DNA of 64,000 bases. It comes from Candidatus Marinacidobacterales bacterium. Lineage in GTDB: Bacteria; Acidobacteriota; Vicinamibacteria; Marinacidobacterales; SMYC01. Positions 306 to 64,000 of this stretch are shown here, one piece after another. The DNA lies in assembly GCA_965224085.1 (NCBI GenBank), contig CBDCYI010000011.1, forward strand, positions 1,543,639 through 1,607,638, read 5' to 3'. A program made the position numbers and the translations under genes. Every line of letters starts with the position of its first letter. Position 1 is the first letter of the stretch. The notes beneath the pieces are model-generated. The model was not told where the DNA came from. It saw nothing but the letters and a program-made list of their open reading frames with translations, and did no database searches.

Positions 306-2063
306 TCACGGCTCTGGATACACGTTCTTCCAGTCCTCCTTCATGTCAACCACCGTCCAGCCGCGGTCCGACGCCTCATCCAGTCCCTTGTCCAGTTGTC
401 CGACGGGGGACGTGCGATCGTAGGCCCACTCACGCTCCGCGTCTGTGTGGTGGACGTAGAGCACGAGCCTGGCACCGTGGCCGGCCGCGGTCCACTGCAG
501 CATCTGCAGGTCGCCGTCGGAGTTGCCGAAGGCGGCGATCGGCCGGCGCCCGATGTGTGAGTTGATGCCGACCGGCTTTCCTTCCTTGTCGTCGACGAAG
601 TTCAGCTCCGGCAGCCTCACGAGAACCGGCCGGCCGTCGCGAATCTCGAATTTCGTCTTGATGCTCGACCCCACCACCTGCTCGGGAGGAATCCCGTAGA
701 CGCGCTCGGTCCAAGGTCGCATGAACTCGATACCGCCACCGGAGACGATGTACGTTTTGAAGCCGTTGGCGCGAAGGTAGTCGAGCAACTCGAGCATCGG
801 CTGAAAGATCATCTCGGAGAAGAGCCGTCTCGTTGTCGGATGCCTCGCTGTCGAGATCCAGTCCGTGACGATTGTCTTGAACTCTTCAGTCGTCATCCCG
901 GCATGGGTGGTCATGACGAGCTCGGCTAGCCCATGCCTGCCGAGCTCCGCCAGAGCCTCCATGTCTCCTTCGAGCACCGTCCTGTAGGGCTGTTCCGTCT
1001 TCCACTCCGGTGGCCCGCGGGGACTTTCGCCGCTCACAGCTGCTTTTTCAGGCTCAGCGGGCTCTAGAGCTCCATCCTCGGAGCTCGCCACCGCGTCGGC
1101 ATCGCCCTTCGTTTTCCTGGTCAATTTTTCTAGAGCTTCGACGAGCTCGGCACCAGACCCAAAGCGCTTGTCGCGTTCTTTCTCGAGCGCGTGGTGGAGA
1201 ATCGGCTTGAGCTCCATCGGCAGCCCGAGGCTCTGCCAGTTCAGGGGGAAAACGGGCTCGTCGTTGATGATGCTCAACAAGATGCCTGTGAGGCTCGGAC
1301 TGCGGAACGGTTTTTCGCCGGCGACGAGCTCGAAGAGAATGCAACCGAGGGAAAACAGGTCGGATCGAGCGTCCACATCCTCGCCTTTGGCCTGCTCCGG
1401 CGACATATAGTCGGGAGCCCCGAGAACGCCGCCGGCCATCGTCAAGTTCGTCGAGAGCTCCGATTTTGCAATCCCGAAATCGGCGACCCATACATTCAAG
1501 GAGGAGGACACCAAGATGTTCGACGGTTTGACGTCACGATGTACGACGTTGCGCTCGTGCGCATAATCCAGAGCGCTCCCGAGCTGCGTCATGATCTGGA
1601 TAGCGGTTGAAAGCGGAACCCGACCTTCCGATTCACTGAGCGACTCGAGTGTGCGTCCTTCGATGAACTCCATGATGATGAAGCCGCGATCTGGAGTGGC
1701 GACAATATCGTGGATGGTGACGATGTTGGGGTGCTGGAGCCGAGCGACGATGCGCGCCTCTCGCACGAATCGCTCGCGGACCTCGTCCGGGGTCCGGTCT
1801 GCACCGGGCGTGTCGAGCCGAACGCATTTGATCGCGACCGGGCGTTCGAGAATCGTATCGAGCGCTTTGTAGACGGCGCCAATGGTGCCCGTCGAAAGAC
1901 GCTCCACGATGTGATAGCGACCTCCAGGAATCTGGTCCTTGGCGTCCACACCATTCACGTCCGATGACGACGCCTGGCCTTTCGGCGCATGGGGGGTATC
2001 TGATGGATCGGCCATGCCCAATGCACAGGCAAGAACTGTGCCGAACTGCACAGCAAAGCTCAT
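306..2063 (-). CDS. Ser/Thr protein kinase fused to C-terminal HAD-like hydrolase domain
   Basis: 585 aa. N-terminal Hanks kinase motifs (GxGxxG-like, VAIK, HRDVKPSNIL, DFGIAK, SPE). C-terminal ~200 aa resembles a HAD-superfamily hydrolase (GNSDGD motif), but no DxDGT motif I was found. Confidence 0.8.
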   Translation of the reverse strand: MSFAVQFGTVLACALGMADPSDTPHAPKGQASSSDVNGVDAKDQIPGGRYHIVERLSTGTIGAVYKALDTILERPVAIKCVRLDTPGADRTPDEVRERFVREARIVARLQHPNIVTIHDIVATPDRGFIIMEFIEGRTLESLSESEGRVPLSTAIQIMTQLGSALDYAHERNVVHRDVKPSNILVSSSLNVWVADFGIAKSELSTNLTMAGGVLGAPDYMSPEQAKGEDVDARSDLFSLGCILFELVAGEKPFRSPSLTGILLSIINDEPVFPLNWQSLGLPMELKPILHHALEKERDKRFGSGAELVEALEKLTRKTKGDADAVASSEDGALEPAEPEKAAVSGESPRGPPEWKTEQPYRTVLEGDMEALAELGRHGLAELVMTTHAGMTTEEFKTIVTDWISTARHPTTRRLFSEMIFQPMLELLDYLRANGFKTYIVSGGGIEFMRPWTERVYGIPPEQVVGSSIKTKFEIRDGRPVLVRLPELNFVDDKEGKPVGINSHIGRRPIAAFGNSDGDLQMLQWTAAGHGARLVLYVHHTDAEREWAYDRTSPVGQLDKGLDEASDRGWTVVDMKEDWKNVYPEP

Positions 2064-2272: not shown

Positions 2273-3328
2273 CTAGTTTTCGAGCTCCGAGTCGATAATG
2301 CTCTGGAAGGCCTCGAAGGGCTGAGCACCCGACAAAAATCGGCCGTTGATGAAGAATGCCGGCGTTGCGTCCACACCAAGAGCACCACCCTGCTCATAGT
2401 CGGCCAGAACGGTCTCGCGAAACTCTCCAGAGTCGAAGCACTGGTTGAACGCCTGTTCGTCGAGCCCGAGTTCGGACGCAAATTGCTTCAGGTTGTCCTT
2501 TCCGAGTGCTCGTTGATTCTCGAAAATCTTGTCGTGGTACTCCCAGAACTGCCCTTGTGCGTGCGCGCAAAGAGCAGCTTCCGCGGCGGGCTGCGCCTGC
2601 GGATGATTGGGAAGGGGGAAATCACGATAGACGAGACGAACCTTGTCGCCGTACGTGCTTTCAATCTGCTTAAGGGCCGGACCGACCCGCGCGCAGTACG
2701 GTCATTGAAAGTCGGAATATTCGACGATCGTCACCTCCGCGTCCACCGAGCCCCTGATGCGTTCGTTCGATGCCACCGTGACGGGCACGCGAGGCGGCGA
2801 CAACGTGACACGCACGCTCGCCTCATCGCGAAGCGTATCGATGTAGCTCTCTCGGACGATGCCCTCATTCCGATTCTCCATGAATTCACGAATCTGCGGG
2901 CCGACCTGCGCGAGCGTCTGACCCCGGAGGCGTGACTCGTTCTGCTCGTAAAAGGCCTCGATGTCCTCGTCGGTCACCGGAGTCACCTGCGACGTGATTT
3001 CCTGCTCGACGAGCTCATCCACTGTGATACTGCGCGCTTCGGCTTCACGGGCCAAGAGCGCGTCCGCAAGGAGTTCTCCGAGCGCGGCACGACGGGCATC
3101 GTATAGGTCCTGGAAAATCTTGAGGTTCGTTGCCAGGACCTTTTGATCCAGCTCGAACATCGTGATCTCGCGATCGCCGATCTGAGCGACTATGCTGTCG
3201 ACGCTCCCACCCGAGGCTTTAACGACTTCGGCGTGGGTCTGCGACTGCGACGCCGTGCCGCAGGCGACGGATAGAAGCAAAGCGCCGGCCAGGACCATTG
3301 TACTCAGACGGCAGAGTTTGACTCGCAT
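2273..3328 (-). CDS. DsbA-family thiol:disulfide oxidoreductase with in-frame TGA at first Cys of CxxC (candidate selenoprotein, U-P-Y-C) or nonsense pseudogene
   Basis: ORF 2702..3328 carries a signal peptide and ends ...TIVEYSDFQ then TGA (2702-2704). The same frame continues PYCARVGPALKQIESTYGDKVRLVYRDFPLPNHP...FFINGRFLSGAQP...ELEN to the stop at 2273-2275. EYSDFQ-C-P-Y-C is the canonical DsbA active site. Total 351 codons, in frame. Confidence 0.6.
2656..2692 (-). promoter_or_regulatory. candidate bacterial SECIS-like hairpin downstream of the in-frame UGA
   Basis: mRNA reads UGA CCG UAC UGC GCG C GGGUC GGUCC GGCCC UUAAGCAG. There is a 5-bp GC-rich apical stem (one G-U pair) with a GGUCC loop containing GGU, and outer CUGC/GCAG pairing. 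The apical loop sits about 22-26 nt after the UGA. Confidence 0.35.
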
Positions 3329-3380
3329 AAACGGGACTCTCCTTTTGATCCACCCAGGTTAGCACAATGTAAACGTCGCC

Positions 3381-3414
3381 GCCCAGCCGCCCCCGCCCAG
3401 CCGCCCCCGCCCAC
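3381..3414. repeat. 14-nt direct repeat x2.4 (gcccagccgccccc) in divergent intergenic region
   Basis: Exact tandem copies at 3381-3394 and 3395-3408 plus a partial copy, between the DsbA-like gene start and the downstream secreted-protein gene start. Confidence 0.6.
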
Positions 3415-3441: not shown

Positions 3442-3854
3442 ATGTCGAGTGCAAGAATTATCGTCGCGCTCATCCTCGCGGCGTTGCCGGTCGCGGCTAG
3501 CCCGGCTGTCTTCGGAGAAAAACCCAAGCTCGTGCTCAAAGCGCCGAGGCTCCAGATGCTCAAACCCGGGCTGGCAGCGCAAGGGTTCGGCAAACGCGTC
3601 GACGTCCGAGCTCGTCTCGAAGGTGATCCTGACGATCCCGAGACCTACTATTGTCTTGACGAGATTTGGGATTGGGGTGACGGCACGGAGTCCGTGAGCG
3701 AGCCCGATTGCGACCCCTTTGAAGAGGGCACGGACCTCAAAATGAACTTCATGGATACCCATTATTTCGGCCCGGCCGGTGGGTCATCACTCTGGCGCTC
3801 ATGGAGGACGACGATGTCGTCCTCGAGGGACGTCTCGAGATCCGCATCTTTTAG
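3442..3854 (+). CDS. small secreted protein (signal peptide), apparent frameshift near 3785
   Basis: Begins MSSARIIVALILAALPVAASPA. After ...HYFGPAGG the protein-like reading continues in the +1 frame (VITLALMEDDDVVLEGRLEIRIF*). The shift is at a G-run (ggtggg). Confidence 0.4.
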
Positions 3855-4005
3855 CTCCAGGTGCTGCTGGTGACAAGCACGTCGGTACGGCGTTCGCTTC
3901 AGGCCTGGCCGAGCCGGTTTTAAACCTTTCCCGGAAAAGCCTCGTCATATCCGAATCAAGAGCGTGGCGGATGGGCCGCCATGTGGATGGCCGTCGGGAG
4001 GCTAA

Positions 4006-5572: not shown

Positions 5573-6044
5573 ACGTCTTCATGGGCGCGGCGATCGTGAT
5601 CTTCTCAACAGCGTCGAGGTAGACATTTCCCACCAAGGCGATCGCATACGTGTCGAGACGCGTTACCCGCGCAATGAACGGCGCGGTGACGACGACCACC
5701 GGCATGGCCATGGCGGTGTCTCCGTCGACTATCGCGTCACCTTGCCCGTTGGGACAGAAGTCGAGATAGGCTCAGTCTCGGGCGATGTGATGCTCGAGGG
5801 AGTCGATGGCGAGACGAGCGTGACCTCCGTGAGCGGTGAGGTCGAAGTGAGCGACGTCGCGAACCTCGTGCAAGCGAAGTCGGTCTCCGGAGAAGTGGAC
5901 GTTCGTAACGCTCGTTCCGACGACGATGTCGATATCGCGAGCGTCAGCGGAGACGTCACGATCAACTCTATCGAGGCCGAAGAGCTCTCGATCTCGAGTG
6001 TCAGCGGTGACGTCCGCATCCACCTGGGCCACGTCCGAACGTGA
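5376..6044 (+). CDS. DUF4097-family putative adhesin / cell-envelope stress protein (LiaG-like)
   Basis: Signal peptide MKKIRFTTTLLIGAVLTAGMSVAQ. Repeated S-V-S-G-D/E-V beta-strand motifs are typical of DUF4097. It lies downstream of the sigma/anti-sigma pair. Upstream ATGs at 5307, 5355 and 5373 are alternative starts. Confidence 0.65.
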   Translation, partial: KKIRFTTTLLIGAVLTAGMSVAQDREERISQTFDIGPNGEFSLSNISGDIRVSGTSGNQVTIEAVKRLHGRGDRDLLNSVEVDISHQGDRIRVETRYPRNERRGDDDHRHGHGGVSVDYRVTLPVGTEVEIGSVSGDVMLEGVDGETSVTSVSGEVEVSDVANLVQAKSVSGEVDVRNARSDDDVDIASVSGDVTINSIEAEELSISSVSGDVRIHLGHVRT

Positions 6045-7515
6045 GCACGGGCTCCATCGTGTGTCCTCCGGTCGCCCAAACGACGAATGTGTGCGGAGAA
6101 AGGCGACGGCCAAGAAGACAGGCCGGGTTGCTGTCTTGGTCACCATAGAAGTGACGGAAATCCTCGAATGTGTGCGGAGAAAGGCGACGGCCAAGAAGAC
6201 AGGCCGGGTTGCTGTCTTGGTCACCATAGAAGTGACGGAAATCCTCGATCCAAGCGTTTCCGTCGGCGTCGCGGACGAGAGCTTCTTTCGCTTCCTGGAT
6301 CGTCATCTCGAATCCGGTGTGGGTTCGTACCGCCTCGACGAGGCTCTCGGGAGAGCCCTTCGCCTTGTCGAGAATGTAGTTGTAGGATGCGGATTGACGG
6401 CCGAGCGCCACCAGTTGCTCCCAAGCGGGATATCGATGGTGGGGCGCATAGCCGAGACCGCTCGGAAGCTCCCATCCCGAAGGGCGGCCGCCGAAGTCGC
6501 CATAGCTGAACGAGAACCCACCGGTGCCGTGATCCGCCGTCACCATGACGAGCGTGTCCGGATGCCGCGCCTGGAAATCGAGCACGGCCCCGAGCGCTTC
6601 ATCGAAGTCGATAATCTCGTGGAGCATCGTCCCGGCGTCGTTGTCGTGCCCGCCATAGTCGATGCGACCTCCTTCCACCATCAGAAAAAAGCCACCCTCC
6701 GCGCGTGAAAGCACGTCGAGCGCGGCCGACGCCATTTCCTTCAAGCTCGGCACCGACTCGAGCCCCATCGCTCGCGTATCCACCACGTAGGGCAGATGCG
6801 ACGCGGCAAAAAGGCCGAGCAGCTTATCCGCTTTTGGCGACGCTTCCGCGAGCCCCATGCGATCCGAGACGACGACATAACCCTTCGTCTTCGCTTCGGC
6901 GATGCGGTTCACGTCGTCCTGTCGATTCGAGCCACCGTCTACTTCTTCGACGATACCCGGCAGAAAATCCGAAACGGGCCGACCCGAGGGCACGAGCGCC
7001 CGAGCACCTCCTCCCAATAACACGTCGACGTCGTACCCGGTCAGCACGTCGTCCAGAATCGCGGGTTCGGGGTTGTAGCGCGACACTTGGTGTGCCGCGA
7101 AGGCCGCGGGGGTCGCGTGGGAGAGACGCATGTTAGAGACGAGCCCCGTCGCAAGACTACGTTTCTTGGACGCCTCCAGAATCGTCTCGACGACGTAGCC
7201 ATCGGAGCTCAAGCTTAACGTCTCGTTTCGGGCCTTCCGCCCCGTGGCCAGCTGCGAAGCCGCGGCGGCTGAATCGGTGACCGTGCTGCGATAAGGGGTT
7301 GGCATCGAATAGCCGGTGTTGCCGTCATTCATCACAACCTCGAGGTACAGTTTTCGGCCCTCCACCATGTTGGCGTATTGGAGGCCGAACGCGGTTTGAG
7401 CCGCACCGAGTCCGTCGCCGATGAGCAGGACCACGTTCTTTGCGCGAGGGGCCTCTCGCGCGCCCATCGGGACACTCGAGAGCAATATCGTCAGAACGAG
7501 CAAGAGCGAGCGCAT
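6001..7515 (-). CDS. alkaline phosphatase (PhoA family), secreted
   Basis: 504 aa with a signal peptide. Motifs GDGLG, DSAAAASQLATG, VTADHGTGG and C-terminal GGHT. Carries an in-frame 27-aa tandem duplication near the C-terminus. Confidence 0.85.
   Translation of the reverse strand: MRSLLLVLTILLSSVPMGAREAPRAKNVVLLIGDGLGAAQTAFGLQYANMVEGRKLYLEVVMNDGNTGYSMPTPYRSTVTDSAAAASQLATGRKARNETLSLSSDGYVVETILEASKKRSLATGLVSNMRLSHATPAAFAAHQVSRYNPEPAILDDVLTGYDVDVLLGGGARALVPSGRPVSDFLPGIVEEVDGGSNRQDDVNRIAEAKTKGYVVVSDRMGLAEASPKADKLLGLFAASHLPYVVDTRAMGLESVPSLKEMASAALDVLSRAEGGFFLMVEGGRIDYGGHDNDAGTMLHEIIDFDEALGAVLDFQARHPDTLVMVTADHGTGGFSFSYGDFGGRPSGWELPSGLGYAPHHRYPAWEQLVALGRQSASYNYILDKAKGSPESLVEAVRTHTGFEMTIQEAKEALVRDADGNAWIEDFRHFYGDQDSNPACLLGRRLSPHTFEDFRHFYGDQDSNPACLLGRRLSPHTFVVWATGGHTMEPVLTFGRGPGGCGRHR
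6085..6246. repeat. exact 81-nt tandem duplication inside phoA
   Basis: 6085-6165 is identical to 6166-6246. It encodes EDFRHFYGDQDSNPACLLGRRLSPHTF twice, in frame. Confidence 0.9.
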
Positions 7516-11172: not shown

Positions 11173-12654
11173 TTATCGTAATAGGTGCCTTGCCATTACC
11201 AACAGGTTGCAGGTGATGATGGAACTCCATACGTAGGATTTGAAAGAAGGCAATGAGCGCCATGTGCATCGGTCGAGACCAAAGACTCGTTTCAAGAACG
11301 AAATGACGCCTTCGATTCCGCAGCGAAATCGCCGTAGGCGTTGATAGACCCAGGAACTCTTGACCATATCGGTCACCGCGAAGTGAGCCTTGGTAAAGGC
11401 AACATCTTCAACTCCCTTGCCTTTGATGGCTTCCAAGTTTGCCTTTGAAGAAAACGCGCCATCGTAGGCAACCTGGCGCGGGGCCCGTTCGTAGAGTTCG
11501 ACTTGACGGTCGATCATGGTTTCCGCGAGAGTTGAATCGGACGGATTCCCATCCAAGATCACGCAATCCAAAATCATCGAGGACGAGCCACCAGTCAAAC
11601 ACACCTTGTGACCGTAGAGAGTCTCGCGCCGGTCTTTGCGAATAATGTCGGTGTGTTCTTCGAAGATCGAAACGACCTTTTCCTCCGCAGGCACACGCTC
11701 TTCATCAATCACTCTACGCCGAGTTTGGTTGATGACTTTTTCGGTGAGGACGAGAAAGTGCTTAAAATCCGCGGCGATCTTCTCCGCACTCGCTCGCTTC
11801 ACCGGCTCGGTCAAGCCGGACTCGTCCAACTGGTCTGCAACGCGTTGAGCGGAGCGATAGGTTTCTTCCGACACCTTCAGTAGATCTCGATAGACGCGAC
11901 GCCTTTGTTCCTTATCCTTCGCGTTTAGAACTCCCAGTCGACGTCTCTTCGCTCGACGCGTTCGATTGCCGAAGACCACTACTGTACCCAGCAGTTCGCG
12001 AGTTCGGCACATGAGGCGAGTGAGAACTCGGACGCAGTCATAAAGAAGCTCGGAGTCCGTAGGAGAATGAATATTCGACTCCACTACCGTGCAGTCCACT
12101 CGTACTTTTCTTCCTTTTTCGATCGCGGTCTTCTCGGCAACACTCACCAACTCTCGGTTGATTTTCTCCAGCGTTTCGAACTTCACGGCTTTGATGTTTG
12201 CTGCTAGGGTCGACTTCGACGGGCTCGGCTCTATGATGCCGAGCTGGCAAAACGTCCGATAGCTTCGAGAGTCTGCCATCGATTTTCTCCAGCGTTTCGA
12301 ACTTCACGGCTTTGATGTTTGCTGCTAGGGTCGTGACGGGCTCGGCTCTATGATGCCGAGCTGGCAAAACGTCCGATAGCTTCGAGAGTCTGCCAAGTGA
12401 AACGCCAGCTCCCGATAGGTGAACTGATTCAGCTGCTTGACCAACAACGCCCGGAGAACCTGCTCCGCGCTCATTCCCCCACGACCAACATCGCTCCCTG
12501 CCGATGGGGTGACCGACCTCAGGTCTTGCAGTACCAGCTCATTGAGCTTAGGATGGGCATCGAGCAGCGATGATATCGTTTCGAGCTCGCGTGCGTGCTC
12601 CAGCTCCAGCCAGGGCTCGCGAAGGCTTGGTTGTGGGTTGATCGTTTTTCGCAT
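11173..12654 (-). pseudogene. IS5-family DDE transposase ORF interrupted by ~118-nt internal tandem duplication
   Basis: The two ORF pieces share the duplicated peptide ADSRSYRTFCQLGIIEPSPS...TLAANIKAVKFETLEKI. Removing one repeat unit would reconstitute a single ORF of about 455 aa. Confidence 0.6.
12161..12395. repeat. imperfect tandem duplication (~120 + ~115 nt) inside transposase gene
   Basis: Unit gattttctccagcgtttcgaacttcacggctttgatgtttgctgctagggtcg...gagagtctgcca occurs twice. The copies differ by a 4-nt indel (acttcgac vs tgac) and the length is not a multiple of 3. Confidence 0.85.
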
Positions 12655-58120: not shown

Positions 58121-58950
58121 GCTGGGACCTGGAACGTCTCACAGACGCGGTGACCGAGGCTGTGCTCTTGGAGCTCGGCGCCGCCGATCGTCCATGCAGC
58201 TGCCATCATCTCGATCGCAGCCAGTGTCCCGACGTGATGCAGCCGCTCGTCGATCGCGGCGCGGAACGGTTTGGCCTAACGGCTTCCGCTCCTCATCGAA
58301 GCCTCGCCGCTCTCATCGACCACACGCTTCTCAAACCCGACGCCACCGAAGAGCAGATCCGAACGCTGTGCGCCGAAGCGGCCACGCATCGATTCGCGAC
58401 TGTATGTATTCAGCCAACCTGGGTGCGGCTCGCCGCCCAGCTTCTTCGCGGAACGAGCGTCGGCGTTTGCACCGTCTCCGGATTTCCGCTTGGCGCCAAT
58501 AGTCCGGACGTCAAAGCCTACGAGACCCGTCGCGCAATATTCGACGGCGCCAATGAAGTCGACATGGTGATCAATATCGGCGCACTCAAGTCGATAGACT
58601 ACCGCACCGTCGAAGACGACATCCGCGGAGTCGTCGAAGCGTGCCGAGAAGGATCCGCGCTGAGCAAGGTCATCATAGAGACGGCGCTTCTCACCGAAGA
58701 CGAGAAAGTCAAAGCATCCACGCTCGTGGCTGCGGCCGGCGCCGACTTCATCAAGACCTCGACCGGATTCGGGCCCGGAGGCGCAACCGTCGAAGACGTC
58801 GCGCTCATGCGGGACATCGTCGGCCAGAAAATGGGCGTCAAAGCCGCAGGTGGCGTCCGCGATCGCGCGACCGCAAAACAGATGGTGGATGCCGGAGCAA
58901 CCCGGATCGGCGCGAGTGCGGGGATCCGCATCATTCAGGCGAGCGACTAA
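58117..58950 (+). CDS. deoC: deoxyribose-phosphate aldolase with ~55-aa N-terminal extension
   Basis: DHTLLKP...FATVCIQP...GFPLG...KVIIE...[11 protein letters not shown]...VKAAGGV. The N-terminal extension contains CSCHH...C. Confidence 0.85.
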
Positions 58951-59578
58951 GAGCCCGACTCGCTTGCTCGTAGTCCTCTGGCGTATCGATATCGACGCAA
59001 ACTCCCGGATCCTCGACAGGTATCTCGAGTACTTCGTCGTGGTGGCGCGCGAGCAAAGACTTCCCGCCCTGATCGCCGACGAGGGTCAGAAACTCCTCGA
59101 CAAGCTCCGCGACAAAGAGCACAGGATGCCCCTGCTCGCCTCGATAGACCGGATGGGCGATGCGCGCACCGACTTCGTCGAAGGTGGCCGTGAGCGTGCG
59201 GATCGTCTCAGGCTTCACGAGCGGTTTGTCGGCGAGTGCTACGAGCACGATGCGCGTTTCTTCGGGCAAGCGCTCGAGCCCGCATCGGAGCGAGCTCGCG
59301 AGTCCGTCGTTGCTGCCAGGATTTATTACCACCTCGACGCGCTCATCATCTTTAAATAGTTTGAATGGTTTAAATGGCTTGAATGGTTTATGAGGCTCAC
59401 AAAGCTCGCTCGGAGACTCGCCAGGCGAAGCGACGACGACGAGAACACGATCAAGCTCGGCGGCCAACAAATTGCGGAGGCTCCTCGACAGCATCGTCTC
59501 GCCGCCGAAAGCGAGATCGAGCTTCGGACGCCCCATTCGGCGCGATGCGCCCGCCGCAAGAAGTACCGCGACGCGCAC
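58931..59578 (-). CDS. MobA-like NTP transferase, YgfJ/MocA-like molybdenum-hydroxylase accessory protein
   Basis: [16 protein letters not shown]-terminal motif. Lies directly downstream of yqeC. Confidence 0.7.
59351..59390. repeat. 9-nt tandem repeat x4 (ttgaatggt-like) inside ygfJ-like gene
   Basis: tttaaatag ttgaatggt ttaaatggc ttgaatggt. Encodes [14 protein letters not shown] on the minus strand. Confidence 0.8.
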
Positions 59579-59581
59579 CGG

Positions 59582-60367
59582 TCACTCCGCCTCGGGACGC
59601 ATTCGATAGAAACATTCGGTCGGCTTGATCGCTTCGCCGAAGACAACCTCTGAAACACCTTGCTGCAATAGGCGCTCTCCGATGCTTTCCGCAGCTTTCA
59701 GACGGTAGTCGACGGCCTTGTTCAACAGGACGGTGTGGCGGCTCCCCTTCGGGATCTTAGGAAGGTAGCCTTTGACGATCGTGGCTGCGATGACGGCGTC
59801 GGTGACGTCCATGCCCGGCGACGCTCCCGATAAGCTAGCCACGATCTCGAGTCTATGGACATGCTCCCCATCGAGCTTGTGGTCGAGAACGTCGAGGCCG
59901 ACGAGGATCGCGGTGAGCGTCGTTTCAGCCGGAATCACAGGTTCGTGGCTCGCCGGCGCTTTCAAGGAACGCCCACGAGCACCGTCGGCCTCGATGACAA
60001 CACAATCGGCAAGACTTCGGAGCGGGTCCAGCATCACGGGATCTACTCCAGCGAGCTTGTCGTCCCGTTTCCGATCCTGAATCACGATCACCGAGCCGTA
60101 GCGCCGAAGCCGCGCTTTGACCGTAGTGAGCCAATTGTCTTGCTCACCCACGACGACGAGCGGCGGCATCGTCGTCGCCGTCATAGGCATCTGCATATGG
60201 GTCGTCGACGTCGCGACGACGCTCAAGCCCTGGCGCCGGAGCTCCCCCGTGAGCGCGTAGAGCACGGTGGTCTTGCCGCCCGCGCCCACGAGGCTCACAA
60301 CGTCACCTTTGCCTATCGATAGCGCGTCGGCGAGCCCAAAACTCGAATCGATCGCGATTTTCGCCAT
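59582..60367 (-). CDS. yqeC: putative selenium-dependent hydroxylase accessory protein YqeC
   Basis: MAKIAIDSSFGLADALSIGKGDVVSLVGAGGKTTVLYAL... matches the YqeC family (P-loop GAGGKTT). The longer ORF N-terminus is rejected. Confidence 0.7.
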   Translation of the reverse strand: MAKIAIDSSFGLADALSIGKGDVVSLVGAGGKTTVLYALTGELRRQGLSVVATSTTHMQMPMTATTMPPLVVVGEQDNWLTTVKARLRRYGSVIVIQDRKRDDKLAGVDPVMLDPLRSLADCVVIEADGARGRSLKAPASHEPVIPAETTLTAILVGLDVLDHKLDGEHVHRLEIVASLSGASPGMDVTDAVIAATIVKGYLPKIPKGSRHTVLLNKAVDYRLKAAESIGERLLQQGVSEVVFGEAIKPTECFYRMRPEAE

Positions 60368-60412
60368 TCGTCGAGAGAGTACTATAGGATACACGGTGAG
60401 AGAACTGGAACG

Positions 60413-61117
60413 ATGCGCATTCCCGTCGCGATCCCCGTTGTCCTCATGAGCTTGGCCGCCGCGCACTGCGCCGGCCAAGAGGACTATGCGGAGGCGCGCC
60501 GAACCATGGTGCGCGAGCACCTGCAGGGGCGGGACATCTCCGACCCTCGAGTCCTCGAGGTCATGAGCCATGTGCCGCGACACGAGTTCGTGCCCGCCAT
60601 GTTGCGCTCGCAAGCCTATGCCGATCACGCCCTGCCAATAGCGGAAGGTCAAACGATCTCCCAACCCTACATCGTTGCGCTGATGACCCAGCTCGCCGAG
60701 ATCGAGGAGGACCATGCGGTTCTCGAGATCGGGACCGGCTCCGGCTATCAGTCAGCCGTCCTCGCCGAGATGGTCCGTGAGGTCCATACCATCGAGATCA
60801 TCCCCGAGCTCGCCGAAAGCGCCCAAGCGAAGCTCGCGGCTCTCGGTTACGAGAACGTGCATGGAAAAACCGGAGACGGTTATCTCGGGTGGGCGGAAAA
60901 GGCTCCCTACGACGCCATTCTCGTCACCGCGGCAGCCCCTGAAGTGCCGCCGCCTCTCATAGCACAGCTCGCCCCCGGCGGTATTCTTGTCATCCCCGTC
61001 GGCCCTCAATCGCAAGTTCAAAAACTCCTTCGGATCGAAAAAACGAATGACGGCACGACAACGACCGAAGAGATAATCCCAGTCGTCTTCGTACCCCTCG
61101 TCCGCGAGCGGCGATAA
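60413..61117 (+). CDS. pcm: protein-L-isoaspartate O-methyltransferase
   Basis: LEIGTGSGYQSA SAM motif. A possible N-terminal signal peptide is present. Confidence 0.9.
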   Translation: MRIPVAIPVVLMSLAAAHCAGQEDYAEARRTMVREHLQGRDISDPRVLEVMSHVPRHEFVPAMLRSQAYADHALPIAEGQTISQPYIVALMTQLAEIEEDHAVLEIGTGSGYQSAVLAEMVREVHTIEIIPELAESAQAKLAALGYENVHGKTGDGYLGWAEKAPYDAILVTAAAPEVPPPLIAQLAPGGILVIPVGPQSQVQKLLRIEKTNDGTTTTEEIIPVVFVPLVRERR

Positions 61118-62954: not shown

Positions 62955-64000
62955 TCATGTCCCGAAAACACCGCTCTCCCGGAGACGCCGAAGTGCCTCG
63001 TTGTCGATGCCAAGCCGCTCGCGCAACACGGACTCCGTGTGCTCGCCGAGTATGGGCGGCGGCGCGTGGTCGCGTTCGCCCGCCTCGGAGAGCTTGAGGG
63101 GGTTACCCGTCAAAAGTAGCTCTCCGAGTTTCGGATGTTGCACATGAAGCTTCATGTTCCGACTTTCTATCTGCGGATTCTCAAAAACCTCAGCGACGTT
63201 TTGTACACGGCCGACCGGGATGCCGGCTTCATCGAGGAGCGCGACCCAAGCCTCCGTACTCTTCGACGCGAAGATGGGCTCGAGCAACGCAGAAAGCTCG
63301 CGGTAGCGGGCGACACGGTCGGCATTGACTTCAAATTCGGGCACGTCGAGCTCCGGTCTTCCGACGACGGCGACGAAGCGTTTCCACAAACTGTCGTTAC
63401 CGACACCGACGATGACGTGACTATCGGCCGTGCGAAACGCCTCGTAGGGCGTCAGCGACGAATGCCGATTGCCGAGCCTGTTCGGAAGCTCGCCCGTCAT
63501 CAGAAAACCCTGCGCCTGATAGCATAGCGTCGAGAGCACGCTATCGAACAAAGACACGTCGATGCGCTCACCCGATCCTGTTTTCTCTCGACGATAGAGC
63601 GACGCCAAGATTCCCTCGCAGGCCATCATACCTGTCACGATATCGGCGAGCGAGGCGCCGACTTTCATCGGCATTCCGTCGGGCTCACCCGTGAGCGCCA
63701 TCCAGCCGCCTTCTCCCTGTATGACGGCGTCGTAGCCTGGCCGCTCACGAAGAGGTCCCGTCTGCCCATAGCCCGAGATCGAGCAATAGATGAGAGATGG
63801 AAGCTGCTCTTTGAGCGCCGCGTAGCCGAAACCGAGACGGTCCATCGTGCCCGGGCGAAAGTTCTCGATGAGAATGTCGGCAGTGTCCAGCAATCGAAGC
63901 AAAACGTCCTTGCCCCCGTCTTTTTTGAGATCAAGGCAGAGGCTTTTCTTGTTGCGGTTGACCGCGAGGAAATAGGAGCTCTCACCATCGAAGAAGGGCG
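62955..64000 (-). CDS. CoA-transferase family III (CaiB/BaiF) protein, N-terminus outside window
   Basis: ENFRPG...GYD motif. The frame stays open upstream of the listed ATG to the window end (PFFDGESSYFLAVNRNKKSLCLDLKKDGGKDVLLRLLDTADILIE). Confidence 0.85.
   Translation of the reverse strand, partial: PFFDGESSYFLAVNRNKKSLCLDLKKDGGKDVLLRLLDTADILIENFRPGTMDRLGFGYAALKEQLPSLIYCSISGYGQTGPLRERPGYDAVIQGEGGWMALTGEPDGMPMKVGASLADIVTGMMACEGILASLYRREKTGSGERIDVSLFDSVLSTLCYQAQGFLMTGELPNRLGNRHSSLTPYEAFRTADSHVIVGVGNDSLWKRFVAVVGRPELDVPEFEVNADRVARYRELSALLEPIFASKSTEAWVALLDEAGIPVGRVQNVAEVFENPQIESRNMKLHVQHPKLGELLLTGNPLKLSEAGERDHAPPPILGEHTESVLRERLGIDNEALRRLRESGVFGT

Follow-up and report, generated by a model that had tools for sequence, protein, structure and literature searches.

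Architecture of the locus

The window, by which we mean the whole 64-kb stretch of DNA analysed here, carries on its minus strand a reading frame of 351 codons that contains an in-frame TGA. The features of this gene are listed below.

3339..3344 (minus strand): Shine–Dalgarno-like AAGGAG, 10 nt 5′ of the ATG, read directly from the sequence
2273..3328 (minus strand): predicted selenoprotein gene, complete, 351 codons including the UGA, from ATG (3328..3326) to TAG (2275..2273)
3260..3328 (minus strand): signal peptide and lipobox (...LLLSVA-C23), predicted from the sequence, of a putative exported, lipid-anchored lipoprotein
2774..3214 (minus strand): N-terminal helical domain, weakly SurA_N-like, residues ~39–185
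2291..2767 (minus strand): DsbA-type thioredoxin-fold domain, residues 188–346, with the UGA inside it (PF13462, PF01323 and PDB sequence matches)
2702..2704 (minus strand): in-frame UGA, predicted Sec209, residue 1 of a U-P-Y-C redox motif (motif at 2693..2704)
2360..2365 (minus strand): Thr322-Pro323, the conserved cis-Pro loop of thioredoxin-fold oxidoreductases, 3′ of the UGA

The minus strand reads ...TIVEYSDFQ up to the TGA (2704..2702), continues with PYCARVGP... and stays in frame for 142 codons to the TAG, as described in the original prediction. Gene callers end the ORF at 208 aa, and the window gene and all seven of the related copies described below are annotated as truncated 208-aa ORFs or fragments.

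The A-C-G motif of the lipobox is kept in relatives and in Cys homologs. The N-terminal domain of the window protein matched PF13624 below threshold (E=0.0014); PF13624/PF13623 is recorded for many full-length homologs, and long helices occupy residues 53–165 in the structure model of one homolog, P0023.

The TGA aligns with the nucleophilic cysteine of a DsbA-type active site

With Cys substituted for the UGA, the window protein matched Pfam PF13462 (Thioredoxin_4) over residues 188–346 at 121.6 bits (cutoff 23.2; 5e-35) and PF01323 (DSBA) at 87.7 bits (cutoff 25.6; 1.1e-24), and both matches cross the stop. The TGA had been placed exactly at the first Cys of the DsbA CxxC motif, and the alignment confirms this: in 34 full-length homologs, all of which keep C209, P210 and C212, the residue aligned with U209 is the first, nucleophilic Cys of CP[FY]C. 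The same column is Cys in 114 Cys-form genes, and in homologs of 46–57% identity. Both the U209-P-Y-C212 motif and the T322-P323 pair, invariant in 35 sequences, are present, consistent with DsbA-family membership.

The fold was tested on P0023, a 56%-identical Cys homolog standing in for the window protein. Its model (pLDDT 88.9) has the DsbA fold, a thioredoxin fold with an inserted helical domain, in which CPFC (205–208) comes after strand 195–201 and opens helix 206–209. The best Foldseek matches of this model are DsbA, TsdA, BdbD and ScsC (E about 1e-11). By sequence, the solved structures closest to the window protein (E=4e-22 to 2e-9) are C. diphtheriae DsbA/TsdA (4PWP, 7UNN), B. subtilis BdbD (3EU3) and ScsC (4GXZ, 4XVW). 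They have in common with it the CPxC position at the start of helix α1 and the cis-Pro loop; unlike the window protein, all are Cys proteins and none has a SurA_N-like N-terminal domain. A scan of GTDB genome contigs with the window protein returned Cys forms only, at up to 47% identity over the full length and up to 55% for matches to the C-terminal domain only, its active-site pattern having been back-translated with a Cys codon, so that the scan is uninformative on Sec forms.

Conservation of the TGA and selection on the codons beyond it

An identical gene with the same TGA was found in three independent assemblies (L005, L006 and L007) from different samples (ERZ25067264, ERZ25072076 and Logan ERR13602196). 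The TGA is also present in four diverged relatives of 84–92% amino-acid identity (L001–L004); in all, seven other assemblies or relatives have it. In L001–L003 the frame remains open past the TGA through the full DsbA domain, with no stops or frameshifts, and the L004 contig stops just 3′ of the TGA. A sequencing or assembly error that turned TGC into TGA is conceivable as a general possibility, but its probability is negligible given the same base in independent assemblies and in diverged relatives.

The codons 3′ of the UGA, whose lack of conservation had been named as a refutation, proved to be conserved: dN/dS is 0.12–0.21, below that of the N-terminal part, at pairwise dS of up to 0.48. 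Neither the reading frame nor dN/dS shows a break at the UGA, and synonymous changes are absent between codon −13 and about codon +10. In addition, a metagenome scan for the pattern DFQ-TGA-P[FY]C matched at least 120 stretches; about 117 of those listed are DsbA-like genes with 140–330 further codons, and some of the matches share the full-length architecture of the window protein at 48–60% identity.

These data bear on the proposal that the gene is a pseudogene, namely a former DsbA-like gene that lost its function to a nonsense mutation (TGC/TGT to TGA) and is decaying downstream of it. One base change is enough to make TGA from a Cys codon, and automatic gene callers do end the ORF at residue 208. 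The purifying selection downstream of the UGA effectively refutes this proposal, to which we attach scarcely any probability: no stop or frameshift interrupts the 142 downstream codons in any of four lineages, lineages as far apart as the dS values given above have the TGA in common, and this codon is TGA in over 100 independent genes from metagenomes. An accidental nonsense mutation had been judged unlikely at the outset, and the retention of the TGA in relatives agrees with that judgement. On this comparative evidence (TGA in independent assemblies and diverged relatives, low downstream dN/dS, and Cys at the column in homologs), the TGA is not an error and the gene is not a pseudogene.

A SECIS-like stem-loop lies downstream of the UGA

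The original prediction also described a GC-rich hairpin with a GGU-containing loop 3′ of the UGA. The hairpin is present at 2696..2666, with its loop read here as GUC, and consists of the following elements, numbered with the U of the UGA as +1.

2666..2696 (minus strand): SECIS-like stem-loop, +9..+39, beginning 5 nt past the UGA
2696–2693 and 2669–2666 (minus strand): lower stem CUGC/GCAG, +9..+12 and +36..+39
Between the lower and upper stems (minus strand): 4×4 internal loop
2688–2683 and 2679–2674 (minus strand): upper stem GGGUCG/CGGCCC, +17..+22 and +26..+31, 6 bp, −7.6 kcal/mol
2682–2680 (minus strand): apical loop G23-U24-C25 (GUC)

The hairpin has the hallmarks of a bacterial SECIS element, namely a stem-loop just 3′ of the UGA whose apical loop is small and contains G, usually as GU. 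In the bSECISearch model, the apical loop lies roughly 16–37 nt from the UGA. Like the SECIS of E. coli fdhF, the window stem-loop starts a few nucleotides past the UGA, and its G23 and U24, in the numbering used above, occupy in the apical loop the positions of the essential G23 and U24 of fdhF. It differs from the fdhF element in its shorter upper stem (6 bp), in its loop of 3 nt (GUC), or of 5 nt (GGUCC) if G22-C26 opens, in having no evident bulged U, and in matching no Rfam model; SelB binding is proposed by analogy. The Rfam search, a covariance check suggested with the original prediction, did not find SECIS or any other relevant family at the gathering threshold in the whole window, and at E<=10 in 2500–2900 it gave two chance CRISPR-repeat matches only, both on the opposite strand.

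Comparison across the family distinguished UGA forms from Cys forms. In the 47 nt past the codon, the mean z-score was −1.59 for Sec forms against −0.08 for Cys forms (p=3e-19), with a GC content of 0.59 in both. Hairpins with dG <= −7.5 were found in 88 of 116 Sec forms and in 15 of 114 Cys forms; the loops of these hairpins contained G in 88/88 Sec forms against 11/15 Cys forms, and GU in 67/88 against 0/15. The loops containing G or GU in UGA forms fall at about +22 to +38, and the loop type predicted from the window sequence is family-wide among UGA forms.

The nucleotides of the window hairpin are invariant in the four diverged relatives. Within the 27-member 'RVGPxL' subtype to which it belongs, 87.7% of cells are paired, against 30–47% with the partners slid, and three base pairs show changes on both sides. 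Codon choice in this subtype is also restricted: Gly is GGU in 26 of the 27 members, and Arg is the rare AGG in 22. Folding of the window sequence by itself gave MFE z values of 0.06 (71 nt) and −0.64 (47 nt), while synonymous resampling gave P=0.015 for an equally stable hairpin with a GU loop and P=0.04 for MFE (overall range 0.015–0.09). The window hairpin is not energetically exceptional and is marginally significant alone; its support comes from conservation and from the family comparison. Part of the structure may not reflect SECIS function, because the nearest Cys homologs (L208 and L210) retain a very similar hairpin. That part could stem from the RVGPT peptide and codon bias, or the hairpin could be a remnant SECIS in L208 and L210.

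The hairpins also bear on whether the UGA is a genuine terminator, with a 208-aa SurA_N-like lipoprotein as the product and the downstream region translated separately or serving another role. A 208-aa fragment would hold the signal peptide and the helical domain, and termination is expected to compete with Sec insertion at the UGA. A separate C-terminal product, by contrast, would be made without a signal peptide and without residue 1 of the redox motif, and the thioredoxin fold would be split between strand β1 and helix α1. Simple termination fits poorly with the continuity of frame and dN/dS across the UGA and leaves the hairpins specific to UGA forms unexplained; we consider it very improbable.

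Selenium-related genes and the nature of the inserted residue

Two genes of the window had been taken as signs that the organism handles selenium.

59582–60715: YqeC gene (TIGR03172, 153.9 bits; cutoff 73)
58931–59578: MocA/YgfJ-like gene

Both genes are indeed in the window, but the use of YqeC as a marker of Sec decoding did not stand. According to the literature, SelD can be deduced from YqeC only in genomes that encode YqeB as well (PMC5029168); no YqeB gene turned up in the sequence searched. YqeC is a marker of the SelD-dependent Se-cofactor trait only together with YqeB, and is not a marker of Sec decoding. Genes for selA, selB, selD and tRNA-Sec were not found in the 64-kb window and its ~16 kb flanks (~80 kb of the 8.7-Mb contig), which were searched with Pfam and NCBIfam on 49 window ORF segments, with ARAGORN, with tblastn using approximate E. 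coli SelD and SelB sequences as queries, and by flank walks from L006 and L212. The similarity of its LeuRS places the organism in the Acidobacteriota, a phylum from which organisms that use Sec are known (PMC1794560, PMC12013277).

Elsewhere in the window UGA serves as a normal stop codon, and as the commonest one: of 59 long ORFs, 34 terminate with it. An alternative code in which UGA is Trp or Gly was ruled out by this usage and by the Cys of homologs at the column.

Read-through could in principle be selenium-free, with near-cognate insertion of Trp or Cys, or a suppressor tRNA, and with the hairpin as a generic stimulator of read-through. The search of ~80 kb without Sec machinery and the similar hairpin of the nearest Cys homologs are compatible with such a mechanism. 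We nevertheless consider it highly unlikely, given that the codon lies at the catalytic Cys position, which is functional with Cys or Sec only, and that the position and G/GU loop of the hairpin fit the bacterial SECIS pattern across ~116 genes. Furthermore, one relative adjoins tRNA-Sec (the metagenomic Sec-DsbA gene L136 lies directly 3′ of it), and UGA serves as the commonest ordinary stop in this genome.

Predicted product and mode of decoding

The in-frame TGA is real and almost certainly specifies selenocysteine, at the active site of a disulfide oxidoreductase of the DsbA type that is predicted to be exported. The analysis shows the alignment of the UGA with Cys, the retention of the UGA in relatives, the purifying selection 3′ of it, the family-wide hairpins of UGA forms and the DsbA fold of a close homolog. 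In our preferred reading, to which we assign a probability of about 0.9, the gene encodes a 351-residue exported lipoprotein with an N-terminal helical SurA_N-like domain and a C-terminal DsbA-type thioredoxin-fold domain, the redox motif being U-P-Y-C and the UGA being recoded as Sec via SelB and the stem-loop.

Under the Sec reading, the UGA at 2704..2702 would be recoded during translation, with the stem-loop at 2696..2666 (loop GUC, +23..+25) recruiting SelB-GTP-Sec-tRNA(Sec) to the ribosome on the model of E. coli fdhF. Under limitation of selenium or SelB, termination at the UGA would yield the 208-aa N-terminal fragment only. The mature protein, if exported and lipidated as predicted, would be a periplasmic thiol:disulfide (selenenylsulfide) oxidoreductase in which Sec209 would be the nucleophile that attacks and Cys212 would have the resolving role; its activity may be that of an oxidase, an isomerase or a reductase.

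Relationship to known selenoproteins and wider occurrence

DsbA-like and DsbG-like UxxC selenoproteins have been catalogued since 2005 (PMC1088965, PMC1794560, PMC5029168, PMC13188914), and the window gene is of this already known type. The finding leaves the current understanding of Sec decoding unchanged. The original prediction had called such proteins known but rare; the catalogues bear out the first description, whereas the ~117 examples among the matches listed from one metagenome scan contradict the second.

The best NCBIfam match of the window protein was NF041057 (E=2.2e-37, residues 190–347), the 'Rcas_1661 family thioredoxin-like (seleno)lipoprotein', listed as 'DsbG-like' (PMC13188914; Zhang & Gladyshev catalogue, PMC1088965, PMC1794560). 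The window protein resembles this family in being a predicted exported lipoprotein with a thioredoxin fold, in its UxxC/CxxC motif and in the coexistence of Sec and Cys forms. The window protein scored 128.9 bits against a curated cutoff of 190, matched by its C-terminal domain alone and has an extra ~180-aa N-terminal SurA_N-like domain; judged on these differences, it is a related subfamily and not a member of the NF041057 equivalog.

A second point of comparison is 'DsbA-like protein form 1' (PF01323, UxxC), first reported from the Sargasso Sea (9 sequences), then from Anaeromyxobacter, Desulfovibrio and Desulfotomaculum, and present in 41 of ~5200 genomes (PMC1088965, PMC1794560, PMC5029168). 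The shared features are a fold of the DSBA type, a UxxC motif that opens with Sec, a bacterial SECIS or SECIS-like hairpin just downstream and widespread Cys homologs. The original family belongs to COG2761 (FrnE-like), whereas the window protein fits PF13462 better and matches FrnE structures weakly and in part (E=7e-7); its domain architecture and its taxon (Acidobacteriota) are different as well.

More tentatively, we speculate that lipoproteins combining SurA_N-like and Sec-DsbA domains may make up a separate, as yet unnamed extracytoplasmic selenoprotein subfamily that occurs in Acidobacteriota of soil and sediment and in their neighbours, with repeated interconversion of Sec and Cys forms and remnant SECIS hairpins in the latter. 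The Thioredoxin_4 DFQ-U-P[FY]-C group as a whole, some of whose proteins have three Sec-DsbA domains, might then be much commoner than genome catalogues suggest, since gene callers truncate every member. Sec might tune an envelope disulfide oxidoreductase/isomerase fused to a chaperone-like domain. We consider this wider picture possible but doubtful.

The gene marks this acidobacterium, which is uncultured, known from metagenomes only and represented by an 8.7-Mb contig, as a probable selenocysteine user, and adds a predicted chaperone-fused, lipid-anchored architecture to the DsbA-/DsbG-like selenoproteins. For annotation, the ~117 similar metagenomic genes carry an in-frame TGA that ordinary gene callers would read as a stop, so that an exported redox enzyme is missing from the annotations of abundant soil and sediment bacteria. 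The set of ~116 naturally occurring SECIS variants from a single protein family, together with their matched Cys controls, constitutes a resource for modelling bacterial SECIS elements.

An in-frame TGA within a DsbA-like gene

The minus-strand ORF opens with an ATG at 3328..3326, preceded 10 nt upstream by AAGGAG, and reaches a TGA at 2704..2702 directly after ...AEVTIVEYSDFQ. Past the TGA this frame stays open for another 142 codons, starting PYCARVGPALKQIE..., up to a TAG at 2275..2273. Both the EYSDFQ-TGA reading and the 142 open codons were as the original prediction had described them. With Cys placed at the TGA, residues 188-346 matched the Pfam families PF13462 Thioredoxin_4 (5e-35) and PF01323 DSBA (1.1e-24); these matches run across the TGA, so the stop cuts the DsbA domain. 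UGA is an ordinary stop elsewhere in the host genome, and 34 of the 59 long ORFs of the window stop at TGA. The intergenic region that separates the DsbA-like gene from the divergent ORF 3442-3873 contains a G-rich direct repeat (two copies of GGGCGGGGGCGGCT, window 3380-3412).

Conservation and selection across the TGA

Protein searches returned full-length homologs of ~345-360 aa (46-57% identity) that have EYSDFQ-C-P[FY]-C at the TGA site, and four clusters of shorter proteins (205-208 aa, 84-92% identity) that stop exactly after ...EYSDFQ. TGA was present in the DNA of all four short clusters; in three of these relatives (L001-L003) the frame is open past the TGA through a complete DsbA domain, and the contig of the fourth (L004) runs out just 3' of it. 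A 35-sequence alignment showed no variation at C209 (the UGA position), P210, C212 or the two cis-Pro residues T322-P323, which bears out the proposal that the TGA falls on the first Cys of the CxxC motif. Three independent assemblies encode an identical protein with the same TGA: ENA ERZ25067264, ENA ERZ25072076 (8.7-Mb contig) and Logan ERR13602196.

The 142 codons 3' of the TGA showed a dN/dS of 0.12-0.21 (Nei-Gojobori, dS up to 0.48), lower than the 0.24-0.50 of the N-terminal part, indicating that the region is translated and functional. Conservation and selection 3' of the TGA, with the TGA shared by three assemblies and four relatives, exclude a sequencing error, and the same conservation and selection exclude a pseudogene. 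That UGA is an obligatory terminator, with the C-terminal product made separately, is extremely unlikely: such a product would have neither an export signal nor the nucleophile.

We consider that the TGA is real and the selenocysteine (Sec) reading supported, with a probability of roughly 0.9. We infer Sec insertion at UGA209, which would be SelB/SECIS-dependent. The product would be exported and lipid-anchored, joining a chaperone-like domain to a thiol:disulfide oxidoreductase whose redox centre is U-P-Y-C; it may act as an oxidase, an isomerase or a reductase. Under limiting selenium, termination at the UGA would yield a 208-aa fragment.

A conserved hairpin 3' of the TGA

The GC-rich hairpin expected 3' of the UGA was found at +9..+39, with GU in its apical loop.

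Hairpin of the window gene (U of UGA = +1)
Lower stem: CUGC +9..+12 (2696-2693) with GCAG +36..+39 (2669-2666), minus strand
Upper stem: GGGUCG +17..+22 with CGGCCC +26..+31, reached via a 4x4 internal loop
Apical loop: G23-U24-C25, 2682-2680, minus strand

The upper stem has a free energy of -7.6 kcal/mol, and the MFE z-score was 0.06 over 71 nt and -0.64 over 47 nt. When the sequence was resampled synonymously with the codon usage of the host genome, an equally stable hairpin arose in 8.7% of resamples, one with GU in the loop in 1.5%, and the observed MFE was reached in 4.1%. Taken alone, the window hairpin is weak. From -37 to +31, every nucleotide is the same in the four relatives, which vary at many synonymous sites elsewhere; judged from these sequences, conservation is a stronger signal than folding energy.

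The window hairpin belongs to an 'RVGPxL' subtype of 27 members, in whose alignment pairing holds for 87.7% of cells, versus 30-47% with the 3' partners slid. Two-sided changes occur at three pairs (e.g. AGG...CCU to AAG...CUU), and an A-to-G change in the window (Thr to Ala) makes a U-A pair U-G. The Gly codon is GGU in 26 of the 27 members (the window's genome prefers GGC) and the Arg codon is the rare AGG in 22, a codon choice that points to selection on the RNA. The contigs of the two nearest Cys homologs (L208 and L210, encoding P0023 and P0022) retain a GGUCGGUCCGACC hairpin, in which Gly is encoded by GGU, about 15-30 nt 3' of the TGC codon of CPFC. On the simplest reading this may be a remnant SECIS left by a Sec-to-Cys change, as described in other families (PMC1794560, Figure 4); the RVGPT peptide may also account for part of the structure.

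Putative Sec forms in metagenomes

The pattern GAYTTYCARTGACCNTWYTGY (D-F-Q-UGA-P-[FY]-C) matched at least 120 stretches of JGI metagenome contigs. All but three of the 120 matches listed were DsbA-like genes, with VEFSDFQ-type sequence 5' of the UGA and typically 140-330 more in-frame codons 3' of it. In all 116 distinct sequences among the matches listed, a perfectly paired hairpin (5 bp or longer) lay within 60 nt of the UGA. Its sequence varied by subfamily, examples being GAGGGUCG-GUC-CGACCCUC, UCUGUCA-GUU-UGAUAGA, UUGCUCC-CGUGAU-GGAGCAA and CUCGAGC-AGGU-GCUCGAG. These 116 Sec forms were compared with 114 Cys-form genes of GTDB genomes at equal GC (0.59).

Structure in the 47 nt 3' of the active-site codon
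Mean MFE: Sec forms -16.1 kcal/mol; Cys forms -10.9 kcal/mol
Mean z-score: Sec forms -1.59; Cys forms -0.08
Hairpins with dG <= -7.5: Sec forms 88/116; Cys forms 15/114
G in loop, among those hairpins: Sec forms 88/88; Cys forms 11/15
GU in loop, among those hairpins: Sec forms 67/88; Cys forms 0/15

The z-scores differed between the two forms (p=3e-19, Mann-Whitney), and the loop of the Sec forms started at +22 to +38 (10th-90th percentile). Selenium-independent read-through of the UGA, which we regard as very improbable, leaves these UGA-form-specific G/GU-loop hairpins unexplained.

In the metagenomic contig L136, which carries one of the Sec forms, a tRNA-Sec (anticodon TCA, 1143-1239, plus strand) sits between a thioredoxin-reductase-like ORF (87-1073) and, directly downstream, a Sec-containing DsbA-like gene with its UGA at 1656. 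The minus strand of the metagenomic contig L106 (JGI Ga0163179_10021610) has three UGAs in a single frame, at 1010, 1724 and 2345 in oriented coordinates (89 codons, UGA, 237 codons, UGA, 206 codons, UGA, 145 codons, TAG), each within DFQ-U-PFC and followed by its own hairpin. The product seems to be a multi-domain DsbA protein that carries three selenocysteines, a Sec counterpart of the ~600-aa multi-DsbA proteins of Myxococcota.

Protein architecture and known selenoproteins

The first 23 residues (MRVKLCRLSTMVLAGALLLSVA-C) resemble a lipoprotein signal peptide, and the A-C-G junction is kept in relatives and Cys homologs. A helical domain at residues ~39-185 has weak SurA_N similarity (PF13624, E=0.0014, below threshold); PF13624 and PF13623 are recorded in many homologs. 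The C-terminal domain is nearest in sequence to C. diphtheriae DsbA/TsdA, B. subtilis BdbD and ScsC. For the Cys homolog P0023 (56% identity), AlphaFold predicts a DsbA fold (pLDDT 88.9), with helix alpha1 starting at CPFC. The top NCBIfam match was NF041057, 'Rcas_1661 family thioredoxin-like (seleno)lipoprotein' (128.9 bits, short of the cutoff of 190), a family listed as a 'DsbG-like' selenoprotein in a 2026 review (PMC13188914). Resemblance to the FrnE-type 'form 1' DsbA-like selenoproteins is weak.

DsbA-like (UxxC) selenoproteins were described from the Sargasso Sea in 2005 (nine sequences) and later in Anaeromyxobacter, Desulfovibrio and Desulfotomaculum; they occur in 41 of ~5200 bacterial genomes, and DsbG-like and thiol:disulfide-interchange selenoproteins have also been catalogued (PMC1088965, PMC1794560, PMC5029168, PMC13188914). 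The window gene thus adds one more to a known selenoprotein type. Its particulars appear to be the SurA_N-like fusion, the predicted lipoprotein anchor and the acidobacterial host; these are no conceptual novelty. Together with the missed NF041057 cutoff and the weak likeness to form 1, they may mark a separate subfamily.

Host and selenium genes

The best GTDB relatives of the DsbA locus are Acidobacteriota, among which Sec users occur (PMC1794560, PMC12013277). The window LeuRS matches a protein of the 8.7-Mb contig at 100% identity, an 'Acidobacteria bacterium' protein at 89% and Vicinamibacteria proteins at 69%. No selA, selB, selD or tRNA-Sec was found in the ~80 kb read, too small a share of the 8.7-Mb genome for this absence to be informative.

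Selenium-associated genes in the window
59582-60715, minus strand: YqeC gene, 'selenium cofactor biosynthesis protein' (TIGR03172, 153.9 bits, cutoff 73)
58931-59578, minus strand: MocA/YgfJ-like cytidylyltransferase, 3 nt after YqeC (160 bits, below the cutoff of 186)

The yqeC and ygfJ-like genes cited in the original prediction are present. YqeC marks the SelD-dependent Se-cofactor trait only with YqeB (PMC5029168), and no YqeB was found in the window or 6 kb past its end. Nor were SelD or molybdenum hydroxylase genes found near YqeC, including those 6 kb.

In the alkaline-phosphatase ORF at 6001-7515 (minus strand), the last part is a 27-residue segment repeated exactly in tandem (two copies of EDFRHFYGDQDSNPACLLGRRLSPHTF); the gene is 504 aa in the window versus 474 and 477 aa called in two other assemblies, which may reflect a difference in assembly or between strains. 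A DDE_Tnp_1 transposase ORF at 11173-12279 (minus strand) has as its counterpart two DDE_Tnp_1 genes in the 8.7-Mb contig and a xanthine/uracil permease in L005, another assembly with the identical DsbA-like gene; insertion-sequence content varies among assemblies. The CoA-transferase III ORF at 62955-63902 (minus strand, 315 aa) was probably shortened by the start-codon rule or by a frame problem, because it matches the Pfam profile from position 78 only and is called at 403 aa in L212, a contig used to read a flank.
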